Positions 1,656-48,975 of a stretch of DNA of 64,000 bases are shown in pieces; the stretch's first letter is position 1, and each line of letters begins with the position of its first letter. The notes beneath the pieces are model-generated. The model had not been told where the DNA came from. It did no database searches and saw only the letters and a program-made list of their open reading frames with translations. The DNA is from Squalus acanthias (taxonomy: Eukaryota), in contig CM059444.1 of NCBI GenBank assembly GCA_030390025.1, positions 44,640,001 through 44,704,000 of the forward strand, written 5' to 3'. The position numbers and the translations under genes are program-made.

Positions 1656-2627
1656 TTCCCTTGTTTGTGGGCTGTAATACGCTCCTCCACGAACTGTTGA
1701 TGAGCTGTCCAATAACTTCACCTCTTCAGAATGATTTGTGGTCAGGGCATGCCCAACGGAATATTTTATTGTGTTTAACTCCTTTGTTTCAGATTTAGAT
1801 TGGCTAGGCTAATAAATTTAAATGTGATGATTGAAATACCTATAAAGCTATGTATGAAGTAGCTTGTATTCCATTTAGAACATGTCCGCTAGAAATTCTC
1901 CTTTGTTTAGTGCAATTGCTCAGGGTTACATTATGGTGGCTCCAGCTGCAAGGGACAGTGCCAGGTTATGACTTCAACTGCCTTTGTTCTACTCTAACAG
2001 CAAATACAAATATGTATTCAACTTTGACAAGTTTACAGTGGCTTAAAGGCATTAGTAGAAAAGTTCACGAATTGAATCCAGGACAAATTTCGCGATACCA
2101 TAGAAACATCACAAAGCACCTTGTCATTCTTTATATGGTTCTTTTGTGCACCATATTTAATGGCTGTGTGAGATTTGCATGTAATAGGAGTCTGTGGCCA
2201 AATCCTCCCTTTTATTTACAAAGGATATTTGAATGCAAATGACTTCTTACGTTAGATCTTGGCATTAGAAATAACTTGGTAAATAATATCCTTTAACCTG
2301 TTTGAAATCTGAACAAATTTGTACACTAAATTGCCCTTGTTTCGTCAAGAAGTATTTCAAGGCTTGAGGCTCCAGTTTTCCATACTTTGTGTAACTTTCC
2401 AAGGGCTACCTTTCATTTTGTGAGTGCCAATTCATGGGGTATTAAAGCATGGATAAAAGGGAGGCAGGCCTGGAACACTAGGATGCCCCTATCCCCAGAA
2501 TTAATTTAAAAAAAATATATATATATATAGAAAGAATATGTTCACGGGTATGGTAAGCCACAAATAATCTCTTCCTTGGGTGAATTGGGAGGTCATAGCT
2601 GGTCTAATAACCTTTTATTCATGGCAT

Positions 2628-2839
2628 TTTATTCATTGTAGTCGTCTGACATTGTACGCTACACAGGCATTGTTCTCTGTCTATATATGCTTTGCCGATT
2701 CGTATTTCTTCACTTCACCTGACGAAGGGGCAGCAGCTCCGAAAGCTTGTGATTTCAAATAAAACTGTTGGACTATAACCTGGTGTTGTGCGACTTCTCA
2801 CTTTTGTCCACCCCAGTCCAACACCGGCATCTCCGCATC
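2628..2839 (+). mobile_element. Short Penelope-like insertion (family A) with a 21-bp target-site duplication
   Basis: Flanked by ATAACCTTTTATTCATGGCAT at 2607-2627 and 2840-2860. Near-identical to 4004-4089. Contains a hammerhead core. Confidence 0.8.
2715..2752 (+). ncRNA. Minimal type I hammerhead ribozyme motif
   Basis: UCAC CUGACGA A GGGGC-AGCA-GCUCC GAAA GC UU GUGA: stem I UCAC/GUGA, 5-bp stem II, palindromic AGCU in place of stem III. Confidence 0.75.
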
Positions 2840-3094
2840 ATAACCTTTTATTCATGGCATCTATTTACTTCTGGCACCAACACAATCGACCTCTCCACCA
2901 CTCTTCTGAGGCTAAATCAGAAGGTGTGCAATCTCTGTGCTGTGCTTAACCCCGAGTTAACCTTCCTACCCTACATCTGGTCACATGCCAAGACTACTTT
3001 TTCCATCACTAGAACATTATCCAACTGTGCCCTTCCCCTGCTAAAACCCTAATCCACGCTTTCATCACCTCCAGAATTAATTTCTTTATACTCT

Positions 3095-3818
3095 TGTTAT
3101 GTTTTAGAGATGTACGTAAGATATTTAAGTAGGTGTCGTGTTCCCCAAAGCAGGAGTGTACCGTTATCCGACCAAAATCAGGGTGAAAGATGGTGAGGCC
3201 CAGGATTCAAACATAGAAACCTTGTCACTGTGCACTGGCTATCGAGAATGTACCACTTGCTGCCATATAATTCTCCTTGTCTTTGATGGGCAGTTTGAAT
3301 ATTAACTCCGGCTATAAACTAACACACCATTTATTTATCACAGAACGGGTAGATGAACAGAATTTAATGAAAACAGTACATGTTACAATAAGTACAAACT
3401 TTACCATCCTCCTTGGTATATCAAACCAATAAAGGCATTTCTCCCTGAGCTATCCCTCTACTTGCATTGAACCTTAAAAGTGGATGTTCCCTTCTTATGC
3501 GGTGAACCCCAGCCATGGAGCCAGAACTAGCACAGACTGTCTGCTAGTTGGAGACTGACATCTGAAGCAAACATTGAAGTAGCGTGCCAGAACCTTTGAA
3601 AGTATACTGAACGAAGCCCATTCACAAAGAACTGCATTCCTCGTAATTAGATGGTTAACCATTTTTGACAATGGCATAAGAATGTTTGTCCCCTAGTTCA
3701 TGCATCTGTGATAACCCAACTAGCATAGATTCCATAAAACAGGTAATATCCAATGTCTCTGCATTCAGTTTGCATTAGCATATTAAAACCACCTTTTGTT
3801 TGCCAGGGACCATGTTAA
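3095..3818. mobile_element. Unclassified, possibly LTR-like insertion that splits the L2; continues at 6546-6719
   Basis: Starts TGTTA exactly where L2 similarity stops, and L2 resumes near 6720. No coding signal and no clear TSD. Confidence 0.35.
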
Positions 3819-3988
3819 AGAACATAAGAAATAGGAGCTGGAGTAGGCCATTCGGCCCCTCGAGCCTGCTCCGCCATTCAACAAGATCATGGCTGATCTT
3901 CTACCTCAACTCCACCTTCCAGCACTATCCCCATATCCCTCAATTTCCTTAGTTCCCAAAAATTTATCGACCTCTGTCTTGAATATAC

Positions 3989-4089
3989 TCCTCCACTTTG
4001 TGTACCTGACGAAGGAGCAGCGCTCCGAAAGCTCGTGATTTCAAATAAAACTGTTGGACTATAACCTGGTGTTGTGCGACTTCTCATTT
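3989..4089 (+). mobile_element. Penelope-like family A fragment nested in the CR1
   Basis: Matches 2717-2803. Bracketed by TTGAATATAC at 3979-3988 and 4090-4099. Confidence 0.75.
4003..4037 (+). ncRNA. Minimal hammerhead ribozyme motif
   Basis: UAC CUGACGA A GGAGC-AGC-GCUCC GAAA GC UC GUG: intact core, perfect stem II, NUH = CUC. Confidence 0.72.
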
Positions 4090-6719
4090 TTGAATATACA
4101 CAGCTCTCTGGGGTAGAGAATTCCAAAGATTCACAACCCTCTGAGTGAAGAAATTTCTCCTCATCTCAGTTCTAAATGGCCGACCCCTTATTCTGAGACT
4201 GTGATCCCGTGTTCTAGATTCCCCAGCCAGGGGAAACATTTTCTCCACATTAACCCTGTCAAGCCCCTTAAGAATTTTATATGTTTCAATTAGATCACCT
4301 CTCATTCTTCTAAACTCTAGGGAATATAGGCCTAGTCTACTCAATCTCTCCTCATAGGGCAATCCCCTCATCCCAAGAACCAGTCTAGTGAACCTTTGTT
4401 GCACTCCCTCTAAGGCAAGTATGTCTTTCCTTCAGTAAGGAGACCAGAACTGTACACAGTACTCCAGGTGTGGCCTCACCAATGCCCTGTAAAATTGTAG
4501 TAAGACTTCTTTACTCTTATACTCTAATCCCTTTGTAACAAAAGCTAACATACCATTTGCTTTCCTAATTGCTTGCTGTACCTGCATGTTAACTTTCTGT
4601 GATTCATGTACAAGGACACCCAGGTCCCTCTGAATGCAAACATTTCCCAGTCTCTCACCATTCAAAAAATATTCTGCTTTTTTGTTTTTCCTACCAAAGT
4701 GGCTAACTTCATATTTCCCCACATTGTATTCCATTTGCCATGTTCTTGCCCAGTCAACCTGTCTATATCTCTCTGCAGCCTCTTTGCATCTCCTCACAGC
4801 TTACTTTCCCACCTAACTTCATATCACCAGCAAACTTGGATACGTTACACTCAGTCCCTTCATCTAAGTCATTAACATAGATTGTAAATAGCTGAAGTCC
4901 AAGCTCTGATCCTTGCAGTACTCCGCTAGTTATAGACTGCCAACCCAAAAAAGTCCCGTTTATTCCTACTCTCTGTTTTCTGTCCATTAACCAATCCTCA
5001 ATCCATGCTAATATATTACCCCCAATCCCATGAGTCCTAATTTTGTGTAATAACCTCTTGTGTGGCTCCTTATCGATTGCTTTTTGAAAATCTAAATACA
5101 CTACATCCACTGGTTCCCCCTTATCCATCCTACTAGTTACATCTTCAAAAAACTCTAACAGATGTGTCAGACACGATTTCCCTTTAGTAAAACCATGTTG
5201 ACTCTGCCTAATTATATTCTGATTTTTCTAAGTGCCTTCTTACCATGTCCCTAATAATAGATTCTAGCAGTTTGCCTACTACTGATGTCAGGCTAACTGG
5301 CCTATAGTTCCCTGTTTTTTCTCTTCCTCCTTTCTTAAATAACAGGGTTATGTTTGTTACCTTCCAATCCTTGGGGACTGTTCTAGAATCTAGGGAATTC
5401 TGGAAGATTAATACCAGTGCATCCACTATCTCTGCAGCTACCTCTTTTAAAACCCTAGGATGCAGGTCGTCAGGTCCAGGGGATTTGTCGCTACTTAGTT
5501 CCATTAATTTCTCCAGTACTATGTCTTTACTTATATTGATTTCTTTAAGTTCCTCATTCTCTCTAGACCCTTGGTTCCCCATTATTTCCAGAATGTCTTT
5601 GTGTCTTCTACTGTGAACAGATGCAAAGTATTTGTTTAATGTCTCTGCCATTTCCTTATTGCCCATTATAATTTCTCCTGTCTCTGCCTCTAATGGGCCC
5701 ATGTTTACTTTCACTAATCTCTTCCTATTTACATACTGATAGAAATTTACAATCTGTTTTTATGTCTCTTGCTAATTTACTCTCATTCTTTTTTCTCTTT
5801 CCTTATCAATTTCTTGGTCCTCCTTTGCTGAATTCTAAAATCCTCCCAATCCTCAGGCTTACTACTTTTTCTGGCAACATTATAAGCCTCTTCCTTTGAT
5901 CTAATACTATCTTTAACTTCTCTTGTTAGCCACAGTTGGACCACTTTTCCTGTGGGGTTTTTGTGCCTTAAGGGAATGTATATTTGTTGTAAATTATGTA
6001 TTAATTCTTTAAATGCTAGCCATTGCTTGTCTACTGTCATACCTTTTAATGTAGTTTCCCAATCTACCTTAGCCAACTCGCCCCTCATACCTACATAGTT
6101 TGCTTTGTTTAGATTTAAGACCCTAGTTTCAGACTTAACTAAATCACTTTCAAACTCAAGATAAAATTCTATCATATTATGGTCACTCTTCCCTCAAGGC
6201 CCCTTTACTACAAGGTTATTAATTAACCCTTTCTCATTGCACAATACTACATCTAAAATAGCCTGTTCCCTAGTTGGTTCCTCAATATACTGATCCAAAA
6301 ACTATCTTGTATACATTCCATCAACTCGTCCTCCATACTATTACTGCAAATTTTGTTTGCCCAGTCTGTATGTAGATTAAAGTCCCCCATGATTACTGTA
6401 TTACCCTTGTTACATCCGTCTCTAATTTCTTGATTTATACTCCGCCCTACATTACAACTACTGTTTGGGGGCCTATAAACAACTCCCACCAATGTTTTCT
6501 GACCCTTGCTGTTTCTTAGCTCCACCCAAACTGATTCTACTTCTTGATTATATTCAATACTTCCATCAATTATCATCCAGGAAACCTGTCTTCATTTCAT
6601 TGTGAATCAATCCAGATGGCCATTTTCTGTACGATCCCAGATTATTAACCCCTCAGATGCTGATACGAGTAATAATGATTTTTATAGTCCAGTATAGACA
6701 AAAATAAAGTTTTGCCACC

Positions 6720-24785: not shown

Positions 24786-24928
24786 AACGAAAGAGTTCTG
24801 ACGAAAGGTCATCGACCTGAAAAGTTAACTCTGTTTCTCTCTTCACAGATGCTGCCTGACCTGCTGAGTATCTCCAGCATTTTCTGTTTTTATTTCAGAT
24901 TTCCAGCATCTGCAGTATTTTCTTTTTG
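24786..24928 (+). mobile_element. Penelope-like family B insertion with 14-bp TSD
   Basis: TAGTTTGGTGCACA at 24772-24785 and 24929-24942. Confidence 0.82.
24792..24832 (+). ncRNA. Minimal hammerhead motif (6-bp stem I, stem-III palindrome mutated)
   Basis: AGAGUU CUGACGA A AGGUC-AUC-GACCU GAAA AG UU AACUCU; the family consensus is GAAACGUU. Confidence 0.7.
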
Positions 24929-25033: not shown

Positions 25034-25406
25034 TCCAAAATAAAAACGGAAAATGCTGGAAATACTCAGCAGGTCAGGCAGCATCTGTGGAGATGGAAAC
25101 AAAGTTAACGTTTCAGGTCGATGACCTTTCATCAGAACTGGAAAAAGTTAGAGCTGTAACCGGTTTTAAGCAAATACAAAGGAAGGGGGAGGGGAGGAAA
25201 TAACAAAAGGGAAGGTCTGTGATAGGGTGGAAGGCAGGAGAGATTAAATGACAAAAGGGATGATCGTGCACGGCAAAAGAGGGTGGTAATGGGACAAGTA
25301 AAGAAACAAAAGATGGGTCTAGAGGAGGTGTAAATGGCAATAGCAGAATCATTACCAACATCTGCTGTCCGAAAAAATGGGATGATCTTAAGTATTTTGC
25401 TTTTTG
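25034..25406 (-). mobile_element. Longer Penelope-like family B insertion with 12-bp TSD
   Basis: TTTTAAAAAGGC at 25022-25033 and 25407-25418. A short inverted terminal piece agtattttgcttttt lies at the right end. Confidence 0.8.
25103..25139 (-). ncRNA. Minimal hammerhead ribozyme motif, intact
   Basis: Minus strand: AGUU CUGAUGA A AGGUC-AUC-GACCU GAAA CG UU AACU. Confidence 0.78.
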
Positions 25407-31494: not shown

Positions 31495-31734
31495 CAAAAG
31501 CAAAATACTGCGGATGCTGGAAATCTGAAATAACTGCAGAAAATGCTGGACATATTCAGCAGGTCAGGCAGCATCTGTGGAGAGAGAAACAGAGTTAACG
31601 TTTCAGGTCAATGACCTTTCGTCAGAACGTTCTGACACAAGGTCATTGACCTGAAACATTAACACTCTTTCTCCACAGATGCTGTCTGACCTGCTGAGTA
31701 TGTCCAGCATTTTTTGTGTTTATTCCAGATTTTC
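31495..31734. mobile_element. Palindromic pair of Penelope-like family B units
   Basis: Axis gtcagaac|gttctgac at 31628/31629; arms of about 105 bp are reverse complements. Confidence 0.85.
31594..31628 (-). ncRNA. Minimal hammerhead ribozyme motif, intact, antisense to VGLL4
   Basis: Minus strand: GUU CUGACGA A AGGUC-AUU-GACCU GAAA CG UU AAC. Confidence 0.75.
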
Positions 31735-48756: not shown

Positions 48757-48975
48757 CTGAAATAAAAACAGAAAATGCTGGAAACACTCAGCAGGTCAGG
48801 CAGCATCTGTAGAGAGAGAAACAGAGTTAACGTTTCAGGTCGATGACCTTTCATCAGAATGACCTGAAGCGTTAACTCTGTTTCTCTCTCCACAGATGCT
48901 GCCTGACCTACTGAATATTTCCAGCATTTTCTGTTTTTATTTCAGATTTCCAGCATCCACAGTTGTTTTTTTTTT
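48757..48975. mobile_element. Inverted pair of Penelope-like family B units
   Basis: 48757-48845 is the reverse complement of 48861-48945. The minus unit keeps CUGAUGA..GAAA; the plus unit starts after the core. Confidence 0.85.
48826..48859 (-). ncRNA. Hammerhead core intact, stem I shortened by the inversion junction
   Basis: Minus strand: UU CUGAUGA A AGGUC-AUC-GACCU GAAA CG UU AAC. Confidence 0.6.

Follow-up and report, generated by a model that had tools for sequence, protein, structure and literature searches.

The insert at 2607-2860 of the window (the whole 64,000-nt stretch of Squalus acanthias DNA that was analysed) is best read as a young, 5'-truncated pseudo-LTR (pLTR) copy of an autonomous Penelope-like element (PLE), likely the product of target-primed reverse transcription starting at the tail and halting after ~205 nt; we put the probability of this reading at about 0.9. 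Taken alone, the locus is an unremarkable dead fragment, of a kind known since 2014, and its hammerhead is probably inert. Its family is useful to the wider field: with so many copies, the genome can be read for the RNA start, the priming sites and the cut stagger, and a defined 41-nt leader together with intact ORFs is to hand for work on the role of hammerheads in PLEs. The lead that we consider worth following is an extra G that likely marks a capped RNA start just before the hammerhead.

As described in the first-pass annotation, a 212-nt insert lies between perfect 21-nt direct repeats. A direct-repeat search places the left copy of the target-site duplication at 2607-2627 and the right copy at 2840-2860 (both on the forward strand, as are all features below unless stated otherwise), and a match of this length is expected by chance ~2e-7 times in 900 nt of like composition. 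Because the first 2 nt (AT) of the right copy could equally belong to the ATG of the element, we count the duplication as 19-21 nt. The insert opens with 9 nt (2628-2636) of target DNA and not of element; they copy 2614-2622, adjoin the repeat 14 nt out of register with their source, and agree with the element at five of their last six positions, which points to a likely microhomology junction. The remainder (2637-2839) is, by family comparison, the 3' part of a 443-nt pLTR (about positions 243-443); the insert as a whole aligns with positions 237-443 of the pLTR of the intact locus L041, and the element portion is the last ~205 nt up to the ORF start codon. It carries an AATAAA hexamer (2758-2763) as a candidate signal, is without a poly(A), ends 76-78 nt beyond the hexamer, and includes the optional 3' tail of ~35 nt (2807-2841) that places it in the tailed class of 3' ends. 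It departs from the majority of 26 subfamily copies at 1 of 203 nt, where those 26 differ by 1-10; relative to that majority the window copy reads as young for its family, in keeping with the recent insertion that had been proposed. A search for the empty site of this locus returned only the locus itself and one 75% match.

The duplication can be judged against the rest of the family. Two pattern searches supplied the loci, which were taken from contig C1 in the order listed; the 185 items reduce to 158 distinct elements, of which 141 have both ends inside the locus, two of these being the window's own (L131, in which the pattern is absent, and three overlapping loci were left out of one sample). 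The 139 elements with both ends in view comprise 81 inverted head-to-head pairs and 58 simple insertions, and a duplication of at least 8 bp flanks 109 of them (72/81 inverted, 37/58 simple) vs 7 of 600 mismatched pairs. Since most of these duplications measure 11-14 bp (mode 12-13 bp), the 21-bp repeat is of the expected kind but unusually long, and it is atypical when set against the 109. It is possible, at somewhat under even odds, that the true stagger was 12-14 nt, as is usual in the family, and that the repeat was lengthened by target repair synthesis and then slippage. Only 2 of the 109 duplications reach 18 bp, and the 9-nt target copy sits out of register at the very same junction, both of which are consistent with lengthening; a plain 19-21 nt stagger with one slip, however, gives the same sequence with one template switch fewer. 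Either way, lengthening is a variant of our preferred explanation and not an alternative origin.

Several features of these insertions deserve a record of their own. Duplications of the same or similar sequence recur at different loci (L163, L186, L200, L204, L215; and L157/L069/L111/L189/L193/L199), with those starting CCATCAAA seen five times, a hint that the element favours certain sites within another repeat. Head-to-head joins (L147-L216, many inverted pairs) often use the symmetries of the hammerhead stems as microhomology, and the two arms of an inverted pair often come from different subfamilies.

The first-pass annotation had suspected a Penelope-like origin and had proposed looking for a partner with PLE reverse transcriptase (RT) and GIY-YIG domains. 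Such a partner exists, and the insert matches its pLTR. A DNA search of the 3.7-Gb genome scored 40 candidates and gave 44 matches, with 94-100% identity among the best 30, and the 5' flanks of the matches run on into shared sequence and then into RT and GIY-YIG reading frames. A protein search yielded 48,790 first-look candidates, 110 of which were scored. Nine of 16 long-frame loci have an open frame of 919-921 codons, and in most of the 16 two same-strand pLTR pieces surround the ORF. [quoted passage not shown] The RT domain (PF00078) scores above the Pfam cutoff, and the GIY-YIG, for which Pfam gave no match, was assigned by eye from VVYLIRC...WYIGET. A CX4CxxC linker (CHGNLCKTC in P0003) is present in the ORF; a CX2-5CxxC linker upstream of GIY-YIG defines the Neptune/Nematis type in the part of the PLE overview used here (PMC8557442), and by this motif the element would belong to that type. 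A search for solved-structure relatives of the ORF found none.

The closest long copy, L055, is 97.6% identical to the window copy and has a broken ORF start, while the intact L041 is 94-95% identical; an intact member of the exact source subfamily is thus putative. Pattern counts convey the scale: the exact 41-nt hammerhead variant of the window copy occurs 2,388 times in the genome, a 29-nt pattern spanning the cleavage site 41,685 times and a downstream 38-mer 44,150 times, with controls at 0 in each case. The family therefore has at least 44,150 copies, among which the window copy is one truncated solo pLTR of many. Another lies nearby at 4001-4092, 1.3 kb downstream on the same strand and inside another repeat; it is a tail-less copy of ~90 nt from another subfamily, carries the C17 variant, and has a 10-bp duplication (3979-3988, 4090-4099). 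A transcript from the promoter at 2682-2712 could hold two hammerheads. At L022, a frame resembling an LTR-retrotransposon integrase (by eye; 2336-3208 of the oriented locus) stands open beside a pLTR copy.

What did not survive is the proposal of a distinct non-autonomous retroelement, taken here as a retrozyme- or SINE-like unit of ~212 nt mobilised by a PLE. We regard this as very improbable, and a self-spreading unit of 212 nt as largely refuted: the insert is instead a 5'-truncated solo pLTR of an autonomous family, and its 5' junction is found once in the genome, with no other copy having the same boundary as members of a dedicated family would. In the motif-based sample, only 5 of 86 copies break at pLTR 225-244, none of them at the same base. 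With its TATA box, initiator, hammerhead and tail retained, the unit could be transcribed and then primed in trans; a pLTR origin is reported for non-LTR retrozymes in the portion of the preprint cited here (bioRxiv 10.64898/2026.07.22.740005), and short copies of 90-130 nt running from +1 to the tail are common in the family. Retrozymes of that sort, however, are tandem arrays with a hammerhead in each unit, and within 2000-5000 there is a single unit and no array. Daughters made from the insert's own promoter, moreover, would begin at 2712 and could not be told from the family's other short copies. The best 30 matches hinted at a truncation hot spot at the hairpin of pLTR 192-233, which was dropped on the same 5/86 figure. 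The hairpin itself, a 42-nt inverted repeat (L043, L048, L054), lies just upstream of the window copy's 5' break.

The motif in this truncated pLTR is a minimal type I hammerhead (2715-2752), with cleavage predicted between 2748 and 2749 (U17) and a palindromic AGCU in place of stem III. The parts that the first-pass annotation named are where it put them, and the full order is UCAC (2715-2718), CUGACGA (2719-2725), a bulged A (2726), stem II GGGGC/GCUCC (2727-2731/2736-2740), GAAA (2741-2744), GC-UU (2745-2748) and GUGA (2749-2752), followed by AATAAA. An Rfam search of the motif gave no match at the gathering score and no hammerhead family at E<=10, and it folds no better than shuffled sequences (z -0.85); its minimum-energy structure does contain helices I and II. 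The identification is therefore one from the core motif and from conservation across the family.

Conservation was assessed in 182 long copies (53 haplotypes), with figures that are inflated, as the search tolerated no more than 3 mismatches in the 5' part and the motif itself served to choose one of the samples. The core expected of minimal hammerheads (C3-A9, G12-A15, U16-H17) is present, G5, A6, A9, A13-A15.1 and U16.1 are invariant, N7 takes all four bases, and position 17 is U in 168 copies, C in 14 and G in 0. Most variation falls at N7, in loop II and at stem positions that tolerate wobble. One helix I pair appears as C-G, U-G or U-A (167/5/9) and one helix II pair as C-G or U-A (174/5). 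Among 13 chosen haplotypes, 99.1% of cells are paired vs 17-47% in slid controls, with two-sided changes at two of nine stem pairs and few independent events. Conservation and covariation of core and stems, the test that had been proposed, are thus both seen, the latter over few events. By an energy model, which is a weak test, the double hammerhead (-19.9 kcal/mol) is not favoured over two monomers (-22.4) or an inactive duplex (-28.1).

Beyond these points, a U4C core change (CCGA) recurs in 7 of the 182 copies (L048, L154, L176, L199, L205, L208, L216); it is common to several haplotypes and was therefore propagated by active elements. The window also holds a second minimal hammerhead family, at 24798-24822 (+), 25111-25135 (-), 31601-31625 (-) and 48833-48857 (-), with stem II AGGUC/GACCU, an ACGU palindrome and a longer helix I; the first of these has an altered base after GAAA.

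The position of the RNA start can be approached through the 5' ends of truncated copies. A TATA box (TATATAT, 2682-2688), present in long copies of several subfamilies and kept in all subfamilies seen, lies 30 nt upstream of the start that we infer, and an initiator-like TCACTTC (2710-2716) contains A2712, at which 5' ends pile up across the family. A sample of 97 copies was drawn on a motif that lies downstream of the cleavage site; the TATA box is retained in 53, and the remaining 44 break downstream of it, 10 of these exactly at the equivalent of A2712 (+1). No copy (0/97) starts at the hammerhead cleavage site; both of our samples required sequence downstream of that site, and the count concerns 5' ends. 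On sequence grounds we consider it probable, with fair assurance, that the equivalent of A2712 is the transcription start.

Much of the interest lies in the base before it. Long copies almost always carry C or T at position -1 (174 of 176); in short copies genome-wide, for one motif variant, the purines at -1 are at least 2,156 G (2,495 purines less all A) vs 339 A, a ratio in which many of the G's can be supplied by an inverted partner (partly judged by eye). Where no inverted partner explains the base, G makes up 17 of 22 purines (p=0.003), and in 18 head-to-head joins of two +1 starts the pair is G/G in 7, its CpG-decay form in 11 and A/A in 0. Against an extra G, loci not chosen on the -1 base have it in only 4 of 15 unexplained cases (p=0.47). 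An extra, untemplated 5' G is an accepted sign of cap copying in LINE-1 and SVA, according to the part of that work cited here (PMC4859970), and the extra G before +1 in thousands of sister copies likely marks a capped RNA start just before the hammerhead. That 5' ends fall at A2712, often with an extra G, and never (0/97) at the cleavage site suggests that capped, uncleaved RNA is the template. The family was also found as contigs in four sequencing runs from four organisms, where its RNA nature is a guess and where, with contigs and no read ends, no pile-up of ends appears. A literature search, supplements aside, found no report of an extra G or of cap copying in PLEs.

One could instead ascribe the 5'-end hot spot to stalling or fold-back of the RT at hammerhead stem I. 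This seems unlikely. Such stalls would suit the 21 of 97 copies that break inside the hammerhead, often at stem symmetries, and the D. virilis element has an internal, TATA-less promoter in the part of that report used here (PMC2377424). The peak, however, falls on the A of the initiator match, 3 nt upstream of stem I and 30 nt after the TATA box, and stalling does not predict an extra G. Cleaved templates were considered for L060, L092 and L096, whose inverted partners seemed to end at the cleavage site, and set aside: L092 and L096 join via stem I complementarity, and the 0/97 count speaks against this reading.

Taking A2712 as the start, we can propose how the window copy arose. An active element would be transcribed from +1 in its upstream pLTR, through the ORF and into the downstream pLTR, and its protein would nick target DNA and prime close to the pLTR end, at either of two sites. 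If it primed in the first pLTR, the short copies of 90-130 nt would result, with their end at the cap; if in the second, longer copies that span the promoter. Because the window copy extends 75 nt upstream of the likely start, its template was presumably the downstream pLTR of a read-through transcript. For both classes the hammerhead would have been uncleaved in the template when copied. Repair synthesis probably sealed the 5' junction, copying 9 nt of target as it did so, and may also account for a duplication of such unusual length.

On this view the hammerhead is carried along as inherited cargo, with selection acting on the active element to preserve it. There it would span nt 4-41 of the capped transcript, and cleavage, if any, would sever a capped 37-nt leader, so the bolder reading gives it a regulatory and not a processing role. 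In its fullest form, which we hold to be speculative and rather unlikely, the copies are a fossil 5'-RACE library: the telomerase-related RT of the PLE copies the m7G cap, a TATA/Inr start lies 3 bases before the hammerhead, uncleaved RNA alone integrates, and the hammerhead is a self-decapping off-switch, triggered by the meeting of two element RNAs, curbing the element and serving no processing step in transposition. If true, the hammerhead limits its element as RNA level rises.

It remains to place the family among known systems, for which we draw on parts of the papers cited. Minimal hammerheads (min-HHR) in the pLTRs of metazoan PLEs were described by Cervera and De la Pena in 2014 (PMC4209133), and by sequence the motif here agrees with all their listed features: a type I core, a 4-bp helix I, an extra nucleotide between 9 and 10.1, G10.1-C11.1 and a palindromic 15.2-16.2. 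In both cases, too, most motifs are solo ones left by truncated PLEs, and fish PLEs are among the carriers. Helix II is 5 bp here vs 7-8 bp in their Schistosoma examples, and U17 is the major form here (168/182), unlike the min-HHR that they describe. Their account, as drawn on here, gives the motif no position against a mapped RNA start.

Adineta Pen2/Pen2a (PMC3846280), taken with the PLE overview (PMC8557442), offers the same pLTR-ORF-pLTR order, an optional tail of 30-40 bp, an inverted 5'-truncated partner (which with the tail is typical of EN+ PLEs), a target-site duplication, and a pLTR with putative TATA box and TCACT initiator. Duplications are 8-10 bp in Adineta (PMC3846280) vs a mode of 12-13 bp here and 19-21 bp at the window copy, and tens of thousands of copies permit 5'-end mapping here, unlike in Adineta. 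The extra G before the first transcribed base is shared with LINE-1 and SVA insertions, in which it is read as cap copying by another class of enzyme (PMC4859970).

The nearest functional parallel is Anolis Poseidon (PAc; Frangieh et al. 2024, PMC11167929), in which uncleaved RNA is the main template, as is suggested here, and no ends at the cleavage site are described, as here. The PAc hammerhead overlaps the ORF start, with priming 111-118 nt inside the ORF, whereas here ~90 nt separate the hammerhead from the ATG downstream of it, and the ATG is where the tail ends; the ORF here also has the CX4CxxC linker, which Poseidon is without. Both systems have two internal RT start sites that give rise to a tail. 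In PAc the two priming sites were shown in vitro, and the 3' ends in our family match them: of 224, 127 fall at -45 to -26 and 93 at -6 to +12 relative to the ATG, two classes ~35 nt apart.
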